From Giardia intestinalis (lineage: Eukaryota), in NCBI GenBank assembly GCA_000002435.2, contig CM018792.1: a stretch of 64,000 nt of DNA. The stretch is one strand, 5' to 3'. The notes below the pieces were generated by a model. The model saw only the letters and a program-made list of their open reading frames with translations. It did not search any database and was not told where the DNA came from. Positions 5,685 through 17,407 of the stretch are shown one piece after another; position 1 is the stretch's first letter; every line of letters begins with the position of its first letter. The translations under genes were made by a program, and so were the position numbers.

Positions 5685-8600
5685 CTAAACAAACACCGGA
5701 GGCACCTTAGTCACTCCCTTTTTGTCTTGCCATGCTGGAGACACCAAGACCTTGTCACTATCAGTTGAGCTCCTTTCATAGCCTTCGTAAAACTCCTTGT
5801 TAGAGTCTGGAACAATGTGTAGCTGGTGAACAAATAGATGCATGTACTGAAGGCACGATAGCCAGATGACATCCATGTACTCATAGGAGGACGGGACGTT
5901 CAGAGCTTGACTGGCGTAGCTTGTGTTGCGAGTAAACACACGCGGAAACACTGTGAAAAACAGGGGCTTCATGAGCTTAATTATGTACAGTTCCAGCTTC
6001 TTGCTCCACTTCATGAGGATTTGAGAGTACGCTATTTCTAGAAACTGTATCATCTTTTCGGCCGGTATCTGCTTTATAAATGGATTGGCTCTCAGAAAAC
6101 GCAGGACGATGGGATTTACCAGCCCGCTTGTTACAATCTTCTCGTGTATCGTATCGATACCATCCTCACAGAGAAGCTCAGTAAGACAGTTGGTCTCACG
6201 CACGAAGATATTCTCGAGAGACAGCGGTTCCTCGTCCTCATCTACTACGCTGTTTTTTCGACAGACACTCGCGGTACTTACAGACTGCTGCATAATAGAG
6301 AGAAACGAGTAGCCATCAATATCAAGATTCAGGCCTGCAGTGTTGTCAAATAGGATGTCGAAGATGTTCAACTTGAAAAACTGTGTGATGAAGTCCACAA
6401 CGCTGATAAACATGGTTAAGAGAGTAGGGTAGTCATCACGGGTCAGCGTTCGGTAGTTGTCTGGACGTGTACTGAAGGCGTGCAATGTATCGTTGTTAAC
6501 AAATGCCTGGGGGACTTTCTCTGCAGACATGTAGCATCCAGAGTTTAGTAAAGAAAAGAGTGTGGACAAGTATGTGCTTGTCTTTTGAAGTGATGGAATA
6601 GACGGAGAGGCGATTATGGGCCCCGAAAAGGAAAAGGTCTTGATAAAATGGTCTAGTGAGGTATTGAAGCTTGCCATGTTTGGCACCTGTGGCTGTCTGG
6701 GTACTTTGGCTTTAGTGGTACGAGGAGACAGTGACACCGGGAGGCTAGCAGAAAGATCCCCGCACGACGAGCTGGGTTTGAGAGACGACGGGGCTCGTGG
6801 AGGCTGTGCATGTATTGCTGCTGATTTGGGCCTAGGAGGTAAGGGCGGCATACTAGACGTCATGGGATTCCGAGCGGGGAGCGGCGAGACCCCACTTGGA
6901 GCTGGGATGCTATCAGAAAGAATAGATGTCTTTGGCTGCGCTTGTCGACTAAGAGCACTGGTCAGCATCTTCCTTATCTCGTCACGAACACTTTTAATTT
7001 CATCCACCGCATCTGTGCGATCTCTTGAAGCACCGTCGATGAAAGAGTCACAAATCCTCAGCTCTTTGAGCTCGCGTATCTCCTTGAGCTCGCGTGAATC
7101 CTGGATTCGGCGAATCTTTGGCGGCTCTGCTGGATCAGCTGGATCATAGAGTCCATCTGTAGGAACAAATGCAGCTGGTATCCCACTCAGCGGATCTACT
7201 CCCAGACCTTCTGTTGCGCAGAGAGCTTCCACCATCGACTCTAGACGTGCAAACCGCAAATCAAAGTACTCATATGCATGCCGATAGGTCGATAGTTCCT
7301 GTAGTATGACCGTTTCAACATATGTTTGGCGCTCCAGAAGGTTGTGCAGGGTTGTGGAGATATCGGTGATTGCTGAGCCGAGACCCTGGCTGAGACCAAG
7401 GTGCTGCACAGATGCATTCAGACTATCTGTATCAATGGACCGTTTTAACTGGTGGATGGTCAGTGATTTCTGCTGGTCATTCTGTGGAGTTTGAATCCGA
7501 CCTATGCTTTCAGAAAGTATGTGTTCATTCACGGTGTGACTATCGCAGTAAGAAATCTGCATCTGAGGTGGCATCTGTAGGTCCGACCCTGTAATGCTCG
7601 GCACAGTCCCTGCCAACGCGACATTTGTGCTGATAGATATACCAAGACTGTCATCCCCTGGAGGCACAGATGCCTGGGAATCAAGCTCTAGGGCGACAGA
7701 CGGTCTCAGCGTGGATGCTGTACCTTCTAGAGGCGTGATAGCTGGAAGAACGTCGCTTGCAAGGGTGTCAACACTCCCAGTGGCTATGACATTAGATGAA
7801 TCTATATCTGCTGCCAACTGGAGATGAGGCTCAAAGTCTAGGGTACGCACCCGCTCCTTAAACACACTAATATCTGGGCCCTCGGTGTTTGCCAAGAAGC
7901 TCTGAACGGTAATGGCAGAAGCGTCCATATCGACCTCTGATAGACCAGAGATAAGCTCTGCCACGGGCAGGTCCTTGTAGATTTCGTATCTAGTGAAATC
8001 GGAAAAGACGACTTCGTTTCTGCTGAAGAAGTACGGCATGCCTCTCCTCTTGCTATTGTTGAAGAGCACATTGTTTATCCGTGCGCTCAGATCCTTAACG
8101 AGATATTTGCTATATTTGTAATTGCGACAATCTAGGTCAATTATGTAATTATTAAAAATAAATCTTATAAGAATAGGCATTTCTCTTAGACTTCCCTTGT
8201 ATGGAGACGTTCCTGTCAAGCTGGACCTGTCAACGGCTGTTGAATAGATGAGTGTCAATGGTACCTTGGTGGAGAAGGAAAACTTAGGGATAAGGGTGTA
8301 CTCCCCGAGTATCTTTTCAAGAAGAAACACGGTGTGAACTTCAGCTAAGCCACTGAGAGCTTCAGAGGGATCTGCGGTGTCTTCATTCAAGCAGACCTTA
8401 TATTTCACTGTTTGAATTAAATAGATGCATTCGTTGCATGCCAGGAGTTTTGCAGAAATAGGCGCGTCGGTGAGCTTCATGTTTTTCGGTATAACAAAGC
8501 CTTGTGCGTGCAGGCTGCCAGTGGAAACAGCCTGCACGTTACTTAGCATCGGCTTCCGGTCTTTGCCAAATTTCCACTCAAAAATAGTGAGCTTTGAGTC

Positions 8601-8915
8601 TGCGTTTAGAACACCGACGAGATGATTCGTGTGGCAGGCATCTAACCACTGTTCATTGAAGCGAGGAACAGCGAGCTCGCGGACAATAATAGAGTCCAGA
8701 GGCTCCTCCATTCTGCATGTGATCAGATAGAGACGTTGCTGCCTCTTATCGACTATGAAAACCATGGTCAATCCGTGAGACACTAAAACGTCGTTGATGG
8801 AGATCCGGACTTCGTTCTCAAAGGAGTAGTTGAAGATACCGGGTGCTCGGGTCTTCAGACGCAGGACGCCTAAGTGCTCCTTGACAACCAGGATCTCATT
8901 CCTTAAAACAAACAT
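5685..8915 (-). CDS. Hypothetical protein of about 1,076 aa with a central Pro/Ser-rich segment (PPLPPRPK...). No family could be assigned by eye.
   Basis: Long uninterrupted ORF. The first track 'M' at 8930 is a TTG. The first ATG is at 8913-8915 in the context caagacaATG. Confidence 0.5.
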   Translation of the reverse strand: MFVLRNEILVVKEHLGVLRLKTRAPGIFNYSFENEVRISINDVLVSHGLTMVFIVDKRQQRLYLITCRMEEPLDSIIVRELAVPRFNEQWLDACHTNHLVGVLNADSKLTIFEWKFGKDRKPMLSNVQAVSTGSLHAQGFVIPKNMKLTDAPISAKLLACNECIYLIQTVKYKVCLNEDTADPSEALSGLAEVHTVFLLEKILGEYTLIPKFSFSTKVPLTLIYSTAVDRSSLTGTSPYKGSLREMPILIRFIFNNYIIDLDCRNYKYSKYLVKDLSARINNVLFNNSKRRGMPYFFSRNEVVFSDFTRYEIYKDLPVAELISGLSEVDMDASAITVQSFLANTEGPDISVFKERVRTLDFEPHLQLAADIDSSNVIATGSVDTLASDVLPAITPLEGTASTLRPSVALELDSQASVPPGDDSLGISISTNVALAGTVPSITGSDLQMPPQMQISYCDSHTVNEHILSESIGRIQTPQNDQQKSLTIHQLKRSIDTDSLNASVQHLGLSQGLGSAITDISTTLHNLLERQTYVETVILQELSTYRHAYEYFDLRFARLESMVEALCATEGLGVDPLSGIPAAFVPTDGLYDPADPAEPPKIRRIQDSRELKEIRELKELRICDSFIDGASRDRTDAVDEIKSVRDEIRKMLTSALSRQAQPKTSILSDSIPAPSGVSPLPARNPMTSSMPPLPPRPKSAAIHAQPPRAPSSLKPSSSCGDLSASLPVSLSPRTTKAKVPRQPQVPNMASFNTSLDHFIKTFSFSGPIIASPSIPSLQKTSTYLSTLFSLLNSGCYMSAEKVPQAFVNNDTLHAFSTRPDNYRTLTRDDYPTLLTMFISVVDFITQFFKLNIFDILFDNTAGLNLDIDGYSFLSIMQQSVSTASVCRKNSVVDEDEEPLSLENIFVRETNCLTELLCEDGIDTIHEKIVTSGLVNPIVLRFLRANPFIKQIPAEKMIQFLEIAYSQILMKWSKKLELYIIKLMKPLFFTVFPRVFTRNTSYASQALNVPSSYEYMDVIWLSCLQYMHLFVHQLHIVPDSNKEFYEGYERSSTDSDKVLVSPAWQDKKGVTKVPPVFV

Positions 8916-11065: not shown

Positions 11066-11204
11066 TTTTAATTTCAGTTCCACCGTACCACTTGTGGGTG
11101 CCTAGGTGGACGCCAACTTCTGAGGGTCCCACAGCAGAAACACTATGCTAGAATTATTCGTTGAACGAGGAGAAATAAAAAACTCATTCACATAGGACTT
11201 CGTG

Positions 11205-13721
11205 ATGATCTTCGTTTTGCTTTTTCTTTTAGGCGGAGTCTTCTTCGAGTGCACCACAGATAATGAATGTGGTGGTGATGGAGGAGTTTGTGACGTTGCA
11301 ATAAATGGGAAAAGATACTGTTCCAAGTGCGCAGGTAGCGATGCGGGAGCACGAGTGCCCATCAATGGAAAATGCAGACTGCTGAGCCTCTCACGGAGCA
11401 TATGCACAGTGCCCACGGGCAATAACCCTAATCCAGGCACGTGTACGGGCTGCATCCGTGACTTCCTCTTCTACAGGGGCGGGTGCTACCGCACGGCATC
11501 CCTGATCAACGCCATATGCAAGGAGAAGCACATCGTCGAGGAGGGGATGTACTGCGGGGCGTGCGCCATAGAGGGCGACGTCCCGATCGACGGGGTGTGC
11601 GTATCAGCAAGCACAGATAGCTCTGGAAACACGTGCGACAAGGGCGTGTGCACGACATGCGCAAGCGGATACTTCTTCCACTACGGGTCATGCTACAAAT
11701 TCGGAGGATCTCCAGGCAGCACTGTGTGTCCTAAGCCAACTAGCACTACTGGCTCTGTCTGTGATTCTTGCGGGTCGAAGTTCGTCAAGAACCCCAGTGC
11801 GAGCCCATCTGCCACCTCCTGCCTCGCGTGCTACGGCCTGGACGGGACCCTCTTCTGCGAGCGCTGCCGGATGAACGTGCTCACGAGCGCAGACGTGAAG
11901 CCCACTCTGTGCACACAGTGCAAAATAGGCTACGTGCCCGTGGATGGTCGTTGTGTGTCAACTTACTCTGCCACCTCGGCTCTTGCAGGGTGCTCTACCT
12001 ATAGCGGTAATGAGAATACAAAGGGACTTTGCGAAACGTGCTCCTCCGGCTACATGCTCTTCTACGGGAGCTGCTACTCTGTCAACGGCCCCCTCGCCCA
12101 GGCCATCTGCAAGACCGAGAACCAGATCTACCTTGGGGGAAGGGTCTTCTGCAAGCAGTGCGCCCAGGCAGACCACTACCCCATCAACGGCTTATGCATT
12201 GCTGATAAGGGATCACATACGTGCGAGGCGGGTATCTGCACAATATGCGACACCAGCACAACCCCCGTCGACAACTCCAAGGTTTTCCCGTTCTATAACG
12301 GCTGCTATGATGCAAACTCTGCAATCGGAAAGCTAATATGCCAGGAGGCGTCTAATGGAGCGTGCTCAACTTGCAATACAAACGAGACATCGAATATAAT
12401 AGCTAATCCTAATTCTGCAGATGGCCAACCAAAATGTCTTGGATGTTGGGACGAGGCAGCTACTGGGGTGGCCAACTGCGGAGGGTGTGCGACCGGCACA
12501 GACGGCGATTCCAAGATCGTCTGCAGCAAGTGCACCGACTCGACGGAACCCAAAGACAACACGTGCCCTCAGGCCCTCCCGCCCACAACGCCTGAAGGAT
12601 GCGCCGTGCAGGGCTGCCAGGCGTGCTCGAAGGACTCCCCCACGACGTGCGACGCCTGCTTCGAGCCTCTCATCATGAAAGAGGACAAGACGAAGTGCTT
12701 CGGGAGTTGCCTGGCGCTGGGCCCGGGCTACTACAACAACTCTGGGATATGCAGCCCATGCATAGAGAACTGTCTCCTTTGTACAGACGGGGCCACGTGC
12801 TCCCAGTGCGACGAAGGATATTATCTTGAACTATCGTCTGCTAATTCATCACAAGGTACTTGTAAGAAATGCGCTGCTGGCTGTTCTGCATGTAATGATG
12901 GCACTGACACTAGTTGTACAGCGTGCCTTCCTGGGTATTACATTGCAAGTGAGTCAAAAGCAAATAGAGCTGCAAAGTGTGTTCTATGTAACACTACTGA
13001 AAGCGACTACACTGGAATTCCAAATTGTATCGCTTGCTTTAGTACCGTAGGAAACAATGGGGCAAAGAATGTTAGGTGCAGTCAGTGCGAAGAAGGATAT
13101 ATTAAAAAACACAATGGATCTCAAGTTGTTTGTGAGCCTCCAACTCCAGAATGTAATGCCGCAATGTGCTCGGTTTGTGTTGAAAATAACCCAGATCGTT
13201 GTGAGCACTGCACGACCGGCGCGTACCTCTGCCCGCGGACGGCGGCGTGCACGAAGGACTGCGCCAGCTGCGGGGGCTCGATGTACCCCGACGAGGACCT
13301 CGGGGAGTGCCAGCCGTGCGACATCGCGAACTGCCGGGTCTGCGCGACGGGGCTCAAGTGCGAGAGCTGCGCGGAGAGCGCCGTCCCCATCTCCCCGGAC
13401 GTCTACCACACGGCGTGCATGGGCTGCAGCGACACCGGGGGCATGGACGGCTGGGTGGGCCTCGCGGGGTGCACGACCTGCGAGCTGACCGACAAGGGCG
13501 GCGGGAGCGTCAACTGCCTCGACCCTGGCTACTACCGGCGGGGCGGGCTCGGCGGGGGAGCAATCGCCGCCATCGTCATCGTCGTCCTCCTCGTCCTGGC
13601 CGTCGCCGGCTTCCTCGTCTGGTGGTTCGTCTTCAGGAGGGGCGGCCGGCCCAAGCGCGGGGCGAAGTACACATCGCTCATGCGGGGCGAGTCCTACGAC
13701 TACCGCCAGTCTCTAATATGA
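11205..13721 (+). CDS. High-cysteine membrane protein of the VSP-like family: signal peptide, many CXXC and GGCY repeats, a C-terminal transmembrane helix and a short basic tail. This is the non-VSP 'HCMP' type; the tail is not CRGKA.
   Basis: Signal peptide MIFVLLFLLGGVFFEC. There are more than 25 CXXC motifs. GGCY-type repeats include YRGGCYRT, HYGSCYKF, FYGSCYSV and FYNGCYDA. Transmembrane helix AIAAIVIVVLLVLAVAGFLVWWFVF followed by RRGGRPKRGAKY... The ATG is at 11205, directly after the GTG used by the ORF track. Confidence 0.75.
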   Translation: MIFVLLFLLGGVFFECTTDNECGGDGGVCDVAINGKRYCSKCAGSDAGARVPINGKCRLLSLSRSICTVPTGNNPNPGTCTGCIRDFLFYRGGCYRTASLINAICKEKHIVEEGMYCGACAIEGDVPIDGVCVSASTDSSGNTCDKGVCTTCASGYFFHYGSCYKFGGSPGSTVCPKPTSTTGSVCDSCGSKFVKNPSASPSATSCLACYGLDGTLFCERCRMNVLTSADVKPTLCTQCKIGYVPVDGRCVSTYSATSALAGCSTYSGNENTKGLCETCSSGYMLFYGSCYSVNGPLAQAICKTENQIYLGGRVFCKQCAQADHYPINGLCIADKGSHTCEAGICTICDTSTTPVDNSKVFPFYNGCYDANSAIGKLICQEASNGACSTCNTNETSNIIANPNSADGQPKCLGCWDEAATGVANCGGCATGTDGDSKIVCSKCTDSTEPKDNTCPQALPPTTPEGCAVQGCQACSKDSPTTCDACFEPLIMKEDKTKCFGSCLALGPGYYNNSGICSPCIENCLLCTDGATCSQCDEGYYLELSSANSSQGTCKKCAAGCSACNDGTDTSCTACLPGYYIASESKANRAAKCVLCNTTESDYTGIPNCIACFSTVGNNGAKNVRCSQCEEGYIKKHNGSQVVCEPPTPECNAAMCSVCVENNPDRCEHCTTGAYLCPRTAACTKDCASCGGSMYPDEDLGECQPCDIANCRVCATGLKCESCAESAVPISPDVYHTACMGCSDTGGMDGWVGLAGCTTCELTDKGGGSVNCLDPGYYRRGGLGGGAIAAIVIVVLLVLAVAGFLVWWFVFRRGGRPKRGAKYTSLMRGESYDYRQSLI

Positions 13722-14450
13722 TTCCCCAGTAAACGGAGCTATCGCCTGCCGGTGCCTGTCTCTGAACGCGCATATCCCGGAGATGTCGACGGAGCCGAGG
13801 AGCCTCCGCACCCGCAAGCGCTCCCCCGGAAAGGGCTCGGTGTCCGCCGTCTTCGAGATCGACACGCTGCACTCTGCGGCATCCGACGCGACGCAGGAGA
13901 GGCCGTTGTGGAGCACCACCCGGGAGATCTCGCTGACGTGGACGGACAGCATGGGCCGCAGGATGCACACTCGATGCCTGGCCCTGCTGGCAAAGTCCCT
14001 GACCTCGCAGTTGTAGTACCCCCGGAGCCCGAAGAAGGAGGCCCCGTGGACCCCGGTGATCGCCAGGGTCTCCAGGTCGTCCAGCAGGTGGTGGCCGAGG
14101 GCCAGGGCGTCGTAGCCGCCGGCGGACACAAAGCTCGCCAGTGTTCCGCGGCGGCAGCGAGAGCAGACGCTGCACGCAGACGCCTTCCTGGCCTCCTGCC
14201 CCGATGCATCCAGGCGGGCGATCTTGGCCGAGACGTCCATCCCAACCACCTGCTGCTCGAACGTCATGGCTCCCTCTGCGGCGTCGTCGATCGACAGCGC
14301 GCACGGGCAGAGGCTCCGTATCGTGTCCAGGATGAAGCCGGGTATCTTTGGGTCGAAGGTCACAGGGGTCACTTCCAGCGCCCCCAGGTCTCCTAGGCCG
14401 ATGGGGTCGAGCAATCCTCGTCTGGCCATTAGAGACAAAAGGGAAAGGTG
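13200..14450. other. GC-rich compositional island (about 68-72% GC against a ~49% background) spanning the convergent 3' ends of the high-cysteine membrane protein and TtcA-like genes.
   Basis: The sequence is dominated by G/C-ending codons. Several long stop-free spurious ORFs occur in other frames: 13057..13488, 13247..13732, 13678..14574, 13739..14245 and 13752..14396. Composition returns to background near 13200 and 14450. Confidence 0.6.
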
Positions 14451-15371
14451 AAGAAGAAGGCAGAGGCTGTCTTTTCCTCCTGAAAAGGCCACAGCTACTC
14501 GACGCAGGTTGCGAACGCGCTTTTCTCCAACCATAAAGGCAGCAATAGCGGACAGGACAGAGGTTGATGGACAAAAGGACTTGTGGACCACGTCCCCTTT
14601 ATCAGTTCTAAAGATAATCTTGACCGAAGCTAACTTATCTTGAATTGACGCCGAGGCAAAATACTCTGGAGAGCAATTGACCCTAAAATCACTGTTTGCC
14701 TGCAGCGTATGTCCTCGAAGCAACGCAGCAAAGGCTGAAGTAATATTTCTCAGGGCATGAGGGTTTATCTCTAGACTACTTGTGAGATACGACATAATCT
14801 TCAACGAATCACCAGGAGGTTCGGTAAAGCGCTTCCTGGCGGGCTGTGGGACAGTATGAGCTTCACCTGTGCATCCACTGATAAAAGAATCGAAATCCGG
14901 AGCGCATTGGAGCGAGTCAAGCTGGGTATCAGCTATGTAGAGGTACACATACATGATGCTATTTCGTGATGGCCCAGCCACGGTCGTTGCTGAAAACATT
15001 TCTAGGAACCAGTTTCTTCCCAACGTACTGTTTCTTGACCAATCTACCTCGAGGAAAAGCTTCTTATCTGGAAAGCAGGTAGAAAGCTCTTCGAGATCAG
15101 AGCAAGTCGTTAGCCCAAACGCTTGGCTAAGGCGATTTGTTATCTCCAGTGACCCGATGAGGCAGAGAGGAAAGAGTCCTCTTATCTTTCTCGCTGTGTG
15201 ATAAAGAAGTACTACGGCGAAGGCATAGTCGCGAATGGCTTTGTCGTCAGACAAGGGCTTGAGGAAATAAAAGACGGCCTTCTCCAGGACAGCTGTATCA
15301 TAGAGGATGTAAAGAGCCTGCTGAACGTGGCCGAGAGCGCTTTTCGGGGGTCTAAGAGAACGCTCGTGCAT
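13713..15371 (-). CDS. PP-loop ATPase of the TtcA/CTU1 (tRNA 2-thiolation) family carrying a ~296-aa N-terminal extension of unknown function.
   Basis: PP-loop motif VAFSGGKDSLCLL lies at nt 14466-14483. The sequence CSVCSRCRRGTLASFVSAGGYDALALGHHLLDDLETL is nearly colinear with E. coli TtcA [37 protein letters not shown]. ATG at 15369-15371. Confidence 0.6.
   Translation of the reverse strand: MHERSLRPPKSALGHVQQALYILYDTAVLEKAVFYFLKPLSDDKAIRDYAFAVVLLYHTARKIRGLFPLCLIGSLEITNRLSQAFGLTTCSDLEELSTCFPDKKLFLEVDWSRNSTLGRNWFLEMFSATTVAGPSRNSIMYVYLYIADTQLDSLQCAPDFDSFISGCTGEAHTVPQPARKRFTEPPGDSLKIMSYLTSSLEINPHALRNITSAFAALLRGHTLQANSDFRVNCSPEYFASASIQDKLASVKIIFRTDKGDVVHKSFCPSTSVLSAIAAFMVGEKRVRNLRRVAVAFSGGKDSLCLLLHLSLLSLMARRGLLDPIGLGDLGALEVTPVTFDPKIPGFILDTIRSLCPCALSIDDAAEGAMTFEQQVVGMDVSAKIARLDASGQEARKASACSVCSRCRRGTLASFVSAGGYDALALGHHLLDDLETLAITGVHGASFFGLRGYYNCEVRDFASRARHRVCILRPMLSVHVSEISRVVLHNGLSCVASDAAECSVSISKTADTEPFPGERLRVRRLLGSVDISGICAFRDRHRQAIAPFTGESY
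13728..13734 (+). terminator. Giardia-type polyadenylation signal AGTAAAC (AGTRAAY), starting 7 nt after the high-cysteine membrane protein stop codon.
   Basis: The sequence tgattccccAGTAAACgg is read directly. It is the only canonical AGTRAAY I found immediately downstream of a stop codon in this window. Confidence 0.4.
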
Positions 15372-15379
15372 AGAGGGTG

Positions 15380-17407
15380 TTAAATTTTGAAAAGATTCGC
15401 CATCTCCAGCAATAGCGGCAACAGTGGTTCGAGGTGTGAAGCACCTTTATTACTCTGCAATCTGGAGTGCAGGCTTTCGTACAATGCACTTGTCTGAGGC
15501 TGTTTTTTAACGGCTTCTGGAAGAAGGGAATATGCCTTAAAAGCAAGGCTGTCCTCTGGGATTGCTGGTGGAGAAGCCTGGACTTGTGGTGTCACAAGTG
15601 TCGCCTCCACTTGCTCGGTTTTTGGTGTCTGTTGATCAGCTGTGCAACTATCTATAAGTCCACCTGAAACACTAGCTCTGAGCTCCTCAACCAGACGTGG
15701 AGCATCTGGAGTCCCAAGTGCCATCAGTATGGATTCTGAAAGCCCAACGTCACACTGAGGTGATTGTAAAAAGCGCCCTGGATACGCGGCCCGGGGATCA
15801 GCCAGTCCCGAAATGGCAGAAACGGTAAGCCTATCGCGAATGCCTGTGTGCCCTCTCTCGTTACCTGCAGGCATTCCAGATGTGGAGAGGCCCAAGTTCA
15901 CGTTCACTCCAACGCTTCCAGCTAGGGAGCGAGTGAAGGCGTACTTGGAATGTGATAAGCTCTGGCCGGTATCGATGCCCGTGACTGTCTGAGATGCTGA
16001 GGTGACCGATGCAATTGTGTCCTCCAGAAGGCTCAGATTCCCCATAGACGCTTGCGAGAGGTCAAGGCCCCCGGAGTCCTCCTTGTCTAGAACAACGGTG
16101 ATGTCACCATGTGTATTCTTCATGATCATTGGCTTGTATGCCAAGACGATGTTGACCGTGTTCTCAGTAGCAGGCGGCTGTGCAGCCTCCGGGGCTGCGT
16201 GAAGAATGCTTACACGGGTGCTTCGAGCAAGAGAGTTCGGGTGTCCGATGGCCGTAAAGATATTAGTCTCAATAAATCCTAGATTGCGTACTTCGTCACG
16301 CACAAGCTTGTGCACCTCGAATATGCTGACACGGTCCTTGGGGCGCTGGACAAGACACAGGGAAATAATGTTCTTGAGTGCGTCTGAATACTTGACACGC
16401 TTGTCCTGAAAGCTGAACTCTGCGCGATAGTTATAGCGAAGATCGTTGTCTGGAAATGGCAACCGTCTATACATCAGTCGATACAGCAATATTCCGAAGG
16501 CAAAGACATCAACAGCAGTGCCCAGGGGAAATTCAGGGTCGATCTTGATCTGCTCGGGGGCCCGGAAGCACGGGGTTGTCTTCAGCTCCAAGGACCTCAT
16601 CAAATCCTTCATCCCCTGCTCATTGTTCTTCATTAGATCTTGAAGCCTCTCGGAATCGTAAGACTCTGTGGTGCAGGATCCAAAGTCACAAAGCCTAAGA
16701 AGCTCTGGAAACTTGGTTGTGCAGCCATTATTGGCCAGTATATCGTCCAAATCATATGGCTCCAAGATCAGAATATTTTCTAACTTGAGGTCTCGATGTG
16801 AGCACCCCTTGCTGTGCAGACAGAGAATAGCAAGGGTGATGTTGTATGCAAACCTCCATATGAGTGGTTCTGGAAGAAAGACCTTGCGCTCTGAACATTT
16901 AATAAGGAGTTTGACGCAGTTCCCGCCCGAGCAATATTCAAGCAGTAGGCGGATAGTGGTGCAAGGAAGCCTTTTCATGCTATGCTTTCCCCCGTCCTGG
17001 ACTCCATGTCCCACACCGGGGACGGGGAGCGCGGAGGATGACAGCTTTAGTTCACGTTCCTGGGGCGCAAATTGTGATGATGTGATACTTGATGCTAGAT
17101 AGGACTGGGAACTGTGCATGCCATTTACGGTTAAATACTCATCAAAACACGCAAAATCTGCAGGGATATAAGTATCATCTAGAAGTAATCCGTGGAATCT
17201 AACAACACACTTTTCGTTGTTGAATCGGAGATGGAAGTAGATCTCTGTTATTGCATCATCATAAACCTTCAGGTCTGACACAGAAAGATGCTTCAATACA
17301 TACTGTTCTCCCGCACAGGATGCAGAATAAATGCGTGCAGATCCGCCCCTTGCAATCTCTTGGCCCACAATGATCTCCTTGTCTCCGAAACGCAAAATGC
17401 TATCCAT
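15380..17407 (-). CDS. Ser/Thr protein kinase of the NAK family (AAK1/Ark1/Prk1-like): N-terminal kinase domain followed by a long low-complexity C-terminal tail.
   Basis: Catalytic loop HRDLKLENILI, activation-loop LCDFGSCT, then CFRAPEQIKID...PLGTAVDVFAFGILLY. Compare the NAK consensus HRDLKVENLLL / KLCDFGSAT / YRTPEMVDLY. ATG at 17405-17407. Confidence 0.65.
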   Translation of the reverse strand: MDSILRFGDKEIIVGQEIARGGSARIYSASCAGEQYVLKHLSVSDLKVYDDAITEIYFHLRFNNEKCVVRFHGLLLDDTYIPADFACFDEYLTVNGMHSSQSYLASSITSSQFAPQERELKLSSSALPVPGVGHGVQDGGKHSMKRLPCTTIRLLLEYCSGGNCVKLLIKCSERKVFLPEPLIWRFAYNITLAILCLHSKGCSHRDLKLENILILEPYDLDDILANNGCTTKFPELLRLCDFGSCTTESYDSERLQDLMKNNEQGMKDLMRSLELKTTPCFRAPEQIKIDPEFPLGTAVDVFAFGILLYRLMYRRLPFPDNDLRYNYRAEFSFQDKRVKYSDALKNIISLCLVQRPKDRVSIFEVHKLVRDEVRNLGFIETNIFTAIGHPNSLARSTRVSILHAAPEAAQPPATENTVNIVLAYKPMIMKNTHGDITVVLDKEDSGGLDLSQASMGNLSLLEDTIASVTSASQTVTGIDTGQSLSHSKYAFTRSLAGSVGVNVNLGLSTSGMPAGNERGHTGIRDRLTVSAISGLADPRAAYPGRFLQSPQCDVGLSESILMALGTPDAPRLVEELRASVSGGLIDSCTADQQTPKTEQVEATLVTPQVQASPPAIPEDSLAFKAYSLLPEAVKKQPQTSALYESLHSRLQSNKGASHLEPLLPLLLEMANLFKI

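Follow-up and report, generated by a model that had tools for sequence, protein, structure and literature searches.

TtcA (NCBIfam NF007972, group I of the TtcA/TtuA superfamily), the tRNA 2-thiocytidine-32 (s2C32) enzyme, is a single module of about 250–310 residues, with the PP-loop at around residue 45. The E. coli-type enzyme has no CxxC pair at its N-terminus; such pairs belong to TtuA, NcsA and CTU1, where they form zinc fingers and are not cluster ligands. Eukaryotic CTU1 (Ncs6) requires an inactive paralogue, CTU2 (Ncs2). E. coli TtcA is a homodimer with an essential [4Fe-4S] cluster held by Cys122, Cys125 and Cys222 (PMC4081106). Here we describe a gene of Giardia intestinalis, located in a window of 64,000 nucleotides (the whole stretch of DNA analysed, from contig CM018792.1 of assembly GCA_000002435.2), whose product resembles TtcA in its C-terminal half but has its PP-loop at residue 297 of 552, preceded by about 265 extra residues. 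Unlike E. coli-type TtcA, it comes from a eukaryote, of an anaerobic protist lineage.

The first eukaryotic s2C32 was reported in a preprint of September 2026, in tRNA-Lys-UUU of Aplysia, and was attributed to a CsdA–TtcA fusion; the same preprint mentions that TtcA homologues had earlier been noted in Giardia (bioRxiv 10.64898/2026.09.27.754811). To place the Giardia protein, a four-sequence profile was run with HMMER against 1.84 billion representative proteins, and the 150 listed matches were compared together with a few cluster members. In 86 of the compared proteins the PP-loop is less than 90 residues from the N-terminus, so that its position in Giardia is indeed as unusually deep as the original prediction had claimed. 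A deep PP-loop was otherwise found, among the matches listed, in CsdA–TtcA fusions or their fragments, in a handful of proteins whose extensions, of about 115–200 residues, are unrelated, and in the Giardia-type family. The fusions (39 proteins, about a quarter of the compared set) are 900–1400 residues long with the PP-loop beyond residue 450, and include P0012, P0028 and P0039, as well as Aplysia LOC101861551 and Cimex lectularius LOC106664088. Like the Giardia protein, they carry a TtcA-type domain at the C-terminus of a long chain, but what precedes that domain in them is a class-V aminotransferase (a cysteine desulfurase-like domain of SufS/CsdA type) followed by a variable linker. The Giardia extension matches neither: Pfam finds no aminotransferase domain in it, and comparison with the linker using hhalign gives no signal (P 0.29). 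An origin of the extension as a leftover of such a fusion was rejected on this ground. Eukaryotes thus have two distinct long TtcA architectures, that of the fusions and that of the Giardia-type family.

The gene is a single open reading frame (ORF) of 552 residues, running from an ATG to a TAG at 13713–13715, and its SGGKDS motif lies at residues 297–302, as had been read from the DNA. Its product is 100% identical over all 552 residues to the "PP-loop family protein" of G. intestinalis WB, so the long form is the existing reference gene model and the DNA belongs to Giardia assemblage A. When clustered at 90% identity, it was grouped under a 272-residue paralogue as representative. The gene is already annotated and the kind of enzyme, TtcA-like, is known; it is the architecture, present in a few metamonads, that was previously undescribed.

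13713..15371, minus strand: complete coding sequence, 552 residues plus TAG, identical to XP_001708332.1 / UniProt A8BA86.
13716..14576, minus strand: catalytic TtcA-like PP-loop module, residues 266–552.
14466..14483, minus strand: PP-loop SGGKDS, the ATP pyrophosphatase motif, residues 297–302.
14163..14174, minus strand: C400-S-V-C403, followed by R407-R408-G409; predicted equivalent of the Cys122/Cys125 pair of E. coli TtcA.
14079..14096, minus strand: GHHLLD (residues 426–431), followed by E434-T435; the LGHHxDDxxET motif of TtcA/TilS-type PP-loop domains.
13869..13871, minus strand: C501 in DAAEC, in an aligned cysteine column; third putative cluster ligand.

Among the matches listed, the same long architecture is shared by other Giardia lineages, by Spironucleus salmonicida and by two Barthelona species:

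P0001: a Giardia lineage, syntenic with the window.
P0002: Giardia GS, GL50581_2769, 552 residues.
P0003: 685 residues, PP-loop at 358; at 1828–3885 of L001, a contig of 69% GC from Logan SRR14944320.
P0005: Spironucleus salmonicida, annotated as "tRNA 2-thiocytidine biosynthesis protein", 409 residues, PP-loop at 216.
P0006: Barthelona sp. PCE, 596 residues, PP-loop at 344.
P0007: Barthelona sp. PAP020, 564 residues, PP-loop at 309.

P0003 presumably comes from a relative of Giardia that is rich in GC; a tblastx comparison of its contig with the window found no synteny. The extension is therefore a family trait and not peculiar to the window gene. A match to the N-terminus of known diplomonad CTU1 proteins had been named as something that would speak against a novel accessory domain; the extension does have counterparts in relatives, but these are TtcA-like or hypothetical proteins and not CTU1.

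The domain content of the C-terminal half is clear. Pfam returns a single match for the whole protein, PF01171 (PP-loop), with 37 bits in this half. The highest-scoring NCBIfam model is that of TtcA, NF007972 (52.7 bits, residues 272–449 aligned to profile positions 28–173), followed by TilS_N (46.3 bits), NcsA (17.8 bits) and TtuA (14.2 bits), these three being all far below their cut-offs of 93.6, 500 and 450 bits respectively. The TtcA model also ranks first for every orthologue, with 24.9–122.6 bits (122.6 and 113.9 for the two Barthelona proteins, 71.1 for Spironucleus).

An alignment of 114 sequences was then made from the family, 71 short TtcA-like proteins and 36 TtcA domains of the eukaryotic fusion type. 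SGGKDS is invariant in all seven family members and in the other 107 TtcA-type sequences. Besides SGGKDS, the family keeps C400, C403, R407-R408-G409, LALGHHxxD (residues 423–431), E434-T435, R472-P473, C501 and R518. The three cysteines are invariant in all seven members, and the corresponding TtcA-type columns are conserved at 100%, 99–100% and 92–96%; at the position of C501, cysteine is found in 96% of the short proteins and in 92% of the fusion domains. C400-S-V-C403 is the only CxxC in the entire protein. The absence of such a pair from the first 296 residues had been correctly noted, and had been taken to mean that the cluster geometry might be altered, on the understanding that a CxxC pair usually precedes the PP-loop of TtcA. 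This does not apply to E. coli-type TtcA, with which the Giardia protein shares the lack of zinc-finger pairs. Furthermore, the cluster ligands of TtcA lie within the catalytic domain and their counterparts are present here, so the concern over geometry is unfounded. On the basis of the alignment, C400, C403 and C501 are predicted to be the three cysteine ligands of a [4Fe-4S] cluster, as counterparts of Cys122, Cys125 and Cys222.

By sequence, then, the catalytic half is placed in the TtcA branch and not in that of CTU1/NcsA. It is nevertheless an outlier. The family scores 70–174 bits against a profile of the short TtcA-like proteins and 40–149 bits against one of the fusion-type domains, whereas these two groups score 126–416 bits on each other's profiles (medians 175 and 287); its scores are thus lower against the fusions than against the short proteins. 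The C-terminal module appears to be a diverged tRNA sulfurtransferase of the TtcA type with an intact-looking active site. The second-best model is the N-terminal PP-loop domain of TilS. TilS lacks the Fe-S cysteines and possesses tRNA-binding domains of its own at the C-terminus; the conserved CxxC...C set suggests that the Giardia protein is a sulfurtransferase and not a lysidine synthetase.

The gene had originally been assigned to a joint TtcA/CTU1 family, with an N-terminal domain of unknown function. Most of this stands, since the protein is a tRNA-thiolation type of PP-loop enzyme, but the label should be TtcA, given the scores of 52.7 and 17.8 bits and the absence of zinc-finger pairs. 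A CTU1-like role deserves consideration all the same, because the protein could be a single-chain equivalent of CTU1–CTU2, making 2-thiouridine at wobble U34 with the URM1/UBA4 thiocarboxylate as sulfur source in place of s2C32. Giardia has URM1 (GL50803_11884), UBA4 (GL50803_12853) and an additional MoeB-like E1 for which no partner is known (PMC7029713). An active module joined to an inactive PP-loop-like module, if that is what the extension is, would mimic the CTU1–CTU2 pair, and a search of the literature for a separate canonical CTU1 in Giardia turned up nothing; it likewise found nothing specific on Giardia CTU1/Ncs6 or on the PP-loop protein XP_001708332. The sequences point the other way. 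The NcsA/CTU1-type model matches only three members of the family, with 17.8–37.4 bits, and even for the Barthelona proteins it reaches only 22.8–37.4 bits against 114–123 for TtcA. The zinc-finger CxxC pairs that NcsA, TtuA and CTU1 carry at both the N- and C-termini are missing, and the Pfam CTU2 family has no match at E≤10 in any of the five N-terminal regions that were searched. There is also a motif, FDPxxPGF, that resembles the DxxxPGF of TtcA. We consider this alternative improbable; by analogy with TtcA, the expected product would be s2C32 and not s2U34.

The extension itself is somewhat shorter than had been proposed. TtcA homology begins at around residue 266–272 in the NCBIfam alignment, so that the truly unmatched part is about 265–270 residues long and not 296. 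It belongs to no recognised family, in agreement with the first description: a Pfam search using residues 1–296 or 1–270 alone gave nothing at E≤10, and Pfam and NCBIfam searches with the corresponding region of five members of the family gave, at the same threshold, only a spurious Tea_mid match in Spironucleus. A profile of the N-terminal alignment found no match among PDB chain sequences at E≤10, and a database search with an N-terminal-only profile recovered P0001, P0002 and P0006, adding no further relatives.

15336..15371, minus strand: conserved basic N-terminus MHERSLRPPKSA, with an RSLKPxK motif common to P0001, P0002 and P0003.
15243..15263, minus strand: loop between β1 and the long helix, LKPLSDD, residues 37–43; position of the relic PP-loop in orthologues.
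14577..14996, minus strand: remainder of the extension, residues 126–265; conserved less than any other part (52% identity to P0001, proportion of nonsynonymous differences 0.28), with low predicted local distance difference test (pLDDT) scores and no matches.
15380..15388, minus strand: AT-rich stretch AAAATTTAA; candidate Giardia AT-rich initiator, by resemblance.

The question was raised at the outset whether transcription starts at 15371 or at an internal methionine, which would leave the extension untranslated. The obvious choice is Met280, which would give a protein of about 273 residues, the size of TtcA. Two paralogues in WB are annotated with 272 residues, and the ATG at 15371 is indeed, as had been observed, only 8 bp from the stop codon (TAA, 15380–15382) of the upstream gene, a same-strand ORF at 15380..17407 with a Pfam Pkinase match. 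The paralogues, however, are different proteins, which have an unrelated 39-residue N-terminus of their own and no PP-loop. The ORF of the extension is unbroken in three Giardia lineages. Compared with the syntenic orthologue in L003, the proportions of nonsynonymous and synonymous differences (pN/pS) are 0.165/0.78 for residues 1–130 and 0.284/0.76 for residues 131–270, similar to 0.156/0.84 for the catalytic half. Synonymous sites are thus saturated (pS 0.76–0.84) while pN remains low, with a ratio of roughly 0.2–0.4 in the extension, which shows that the extension is under purifying selection as coding sequence. The RSLKPxK motif at the extreme N-terminus is conserved even in P0003, which is only 28% identical, and the N-termini of Spironucleus and Barthelona, whose proteins also have long N-terminal regions, contain K/P-rich equivalents; Met280, in contrast, is Ile in P0001. 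Giardia promoters have AT-rich initiators, and AAAATTTAA lies 9–17 nucleotides upstream of the first ATG, within the last codons and stop of the kinase gene; it may be the putative initiator of the PP-loop gene, and no comparable AT-rich element was found in the region before Met280. On the sequence evidence the extension is real, translated coding sequence, and an internal start is very improbable. The conserved N-terminus (MLSDRSL or MHERSL) is unlikely to be a mitosomal-type presequence, because the mitosome is an organelle without a genome, in which a tRNA enzyme would be misplaced.

The nature of the extension was approached by structure prediction. AlphaFold2, given the seven N-terminal regions, reaches good confidence only over residues 31–110 or so, where block-mean pLDDT values are 68–88. 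The predicted elements are helices at residues 10–23 and 26–31, strand β1 (32–36), a loop, a long helix (43–62), β2 (69–72), a helix, β3, a further helix and β4 (105–109), making up a β/α core. A full-length prediction of the protein, which had been recommended as a check, was made from four sequences and was successful in part: it returned the identical N-terminal core, but its overall pLDDT of 38.9 is too poor to say how the domains pack. The top Foldseek match of the N-terminal core is NAD synthetase, with an E value of 0.018.

In orthologues the loop after β1 resembles a PP-loop that has decayed. In P0003 its sequence is FVSLSDGGIES, in the Barthelona proteins VVVVPFDGSLQS and FIVIIDGSIQS, and in Spironucleus YFIINGEHTNS. 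The motifs SDGGIES (P0003), FDGSLQS and IDGSIQS (Barthelona) give a relic consensus DG(G/S)x(E/Q)S, in the place where a PP-loop would be expected. In G. intestinalis the loop is FYFLKPLSDDK and the motif is eroded; a functional SGGxDS is absent from the extension, and if the extension does have the adenine-nucleotide α-hydrolase/PP-loop fold, it is an inactive version of it.

An hhalign comparison of the seven extensions with the 71 short TtcA-like proteins is co-linear over 243 columns (score 22.4, P 0.026). It aligns the basic N-terminus with the basic N-terminal helix of TtcA and a dGSxxS consensus with SGGKDS; residues 126–265 are co-linear with the second half of the TtcA module, at low confidence. 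Shuffled by column the comparison scored 12.3 ± 1.9, and shuffled by block 13.5 ± 2.3 (maximum 20.8); none of the 60 shuffles of either kind reached 22.4. The four non-intestinalis sequences, taken by themselves, scored 24.4 (P 0.012), a value reached by one of 79 shuffles. These lines of evidence are individually weak but concordant, and the extension is also about as long as one TtcA module. For these reasons we favour duplication followed by decay: the extension is probably a decayed PP-loop/TtcA-like copy, which would have arisen by tandem duplication or by fusion of paralogues, the first copy then degenerating.

A number of results weigh against these assignments. The hhalign probability is 2–4%, and the G. 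intestinalis-type sequences on their own score 15.0, below the shuffle mean. A comparison of the N-terminal with the C-terminal half, from the four-sequence alignment, gave no signal (P 0.83). As for the catalytic module, the 52.7 bits of the window protein are well short of the TtcA equivalog cut-off of 272 bits, as are the scores of the orthologues, although the nearest short relatives in the HMMER search also fall slightly below it, at 181–269 bits. Some residues conserved in TtcA have been lost: there is no GD before β1, and in Giardia a Leu stands in place of the first D of HHxDD. AlphaFold2 modelled this module poorly from the four-sequence alignment. Finally, s2C has been reported in only one eukaryote, where it is attributed to a protein of another architecture (bioRxiv 10.64898/2026.09.27.754811).

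Several of these observations would be expected if the extension were an unrelated, lineage-specific α/β domain, which might dock a sulfur donor or a factor that delivers Fe-S clusters (cytosolic iron-sulfur assembly, CIA), or recognise tRNA, its likeness to a PP-loop domain being that of any Rossmann-like fold. The lack of matches in Pfam, NCBIfam and PDB sequences and the absence of signal between the two halves fit such a domain, as does a pLDDT below 50 over more than half of the extension. N-terminal accessory regions are moreover a recurring theme, since the TtcA domain of other eukaryotes likewise follows a long partner region, although a different one, the CsdA-like desulfurase. It is harder to explain in this way why four orthologues have a relic DG(G/S)xxS in the correct loop, and why hhalign places that relic on SGGKDS with a score that beats all or nearly all shuffles; nor does the extension resemble the linker of the fusions. 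We regard an unrelated domain as unlikely, though it is the most serious of the alternatives considered.

The following mechanism can be envisaged. The SGGKDS PP-loop would bind ATP and the C2 oxygen of the target pyrimidine would be adenylated, after which the oxygen would be replaced by sulfur delivered through the [4Fe-4S] cluster on C400, C403 and C501. The sulfide would be carried on the free iron of the three-cysteine cluster and inserted after adenylation, to judge from TtcA (PMC4081106) and from TtuA and NcsA. The family to which the module belongs makes cytidine 32 the most likely target in cytosolic tRNAs, giving s2C32. If the extension is a decayed copy, this first copy would have lost both its ATP motif and its cluster cysteines during decay, and the dead N-terminal module could act as an in-cis pseudo-partner, that is, the structural and/or tRNA-binding half of a pseudo-dimer, with the conserved basic N-terminus perhaps contributing contacts to tRNA. 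The pseudo-dimer is proposed by analogy, because TtcA is a homodimer and CTU1 needs CTU2. The suggestion that the extension might serve for partner binding and so replace CTU2 was therefore close in spirit, in that a fused inactive PP-loop-like module is envisaged. The likeness to CTU1–CTU2 lies in the pairing of an active PP-loop Fe-S unit with an inactive PP-loop-like partner, here within one chain. Taken as a whole, a TtcA-like enzyme with a decayed twin module as its pseudo-partner in cis seems to us somewhat more probable than its opposite.

The presence of a distinct TtcA-type architecture in Giardia, Spironucleus and Barthelona leads one to expect s2C32, or a related thionucleoside, in these anaerobic protists too. 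If the decayed twin is real, this would be a compact case of a homodimeric Fe-S tRNA-modifying enzyme turned into an active/inactive pair, following the logic of CTU1–CTU2 in cis. In Giardia, where Fe-S assembly takes place in mitosomes, the protein would in addition be a [4Fe-4S] client located in the cytosol. The observations are of value chiefly for a concrete prediction that can be tested, s2C in the tRNA of Giardia, and for what is likely an instance of an enzyme that carries its own decayed partner. For annotation, the long gene model is correct, and the label to use for the family is TtcA-like, not CTU1.

WB has two 272-residue paralogues of the gene, XP_001709625 and XP_001707151. Both are named "PP-loop family protein", and the database name is misleading because they actually have no PP-loop.

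13709..14408, no strand assigned: duplicated segment, codons 322–552 and the stop; template or partner of the 272-residue PP-loop-less paralogues.

XP_001709625 is identical to residues 320–552 of the window protein at 231 of 233 positions, and XP_001707151 is nearly as close, with five differences. Both begin with the different 39-residue N-terminus and have no SGGKDS. The CxxC...C cysteines are retained, which makes these copies partial pseudo-enzymes or else partners in conversion. Isolate P15 also has a paralogue (at 8001–8777 of L004), and the locus at 8079–8781 shows 88.9% nucleotide identity to 14408–13709 of the window and a ratio of nonsynonymous to synonymous substitution rates (dN/dS) of 0.23.

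The base composition of the window gene changes abruptly along its length. The GC content at third codon positions (GC3) is 0.42–0.52 over codons 51–300 and 0.84–0.92 over codons 351–550, and local GC in the window at 13250–14500 is 64–69% against 48%. In the L003 orthologue GC3 is flat at 0.30–0.48, while in the P15 paralogue it is 0.76–0.86. The step in the window gene is located at the edge of the duplicated segment. Because the two coincide, concerted evolution of the copies with GC-biased gene conversion among them is suggested, and this would fit the GC3 pattern.

All of these elements can be combined into a fuller scheme, which we offer as tentative and on the doubtful side. Diplomonads and barthelonids would have a single-chain, pseudo-heterodimeric TtcA that arose by tandem duplication of the whole gene, with the first copy now serving as a CTU2-like scaffold, and which installs s2C32 on cytosolic tRNAs. 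It would be a second eukaryotic route to 2-thiocytidine, unlike the CsdA–TtcA fusions of animals and algae. The half-copies of assemblages A and E would be kept alike by gene conversion, and may be additional partners or regulators.

On the 3' side, the window gene converges with a plus-strand gene at 11202..13721, which encodes a cysteine-rich membrane protein of 839 residues with a match to the Pfam VSP family (136 bits). The 3' end of this gene overlaps the final 9 bp of the PP-loop ORF, and its last 200 or so codons have an extremely high GC3, of 0.76–1.0.

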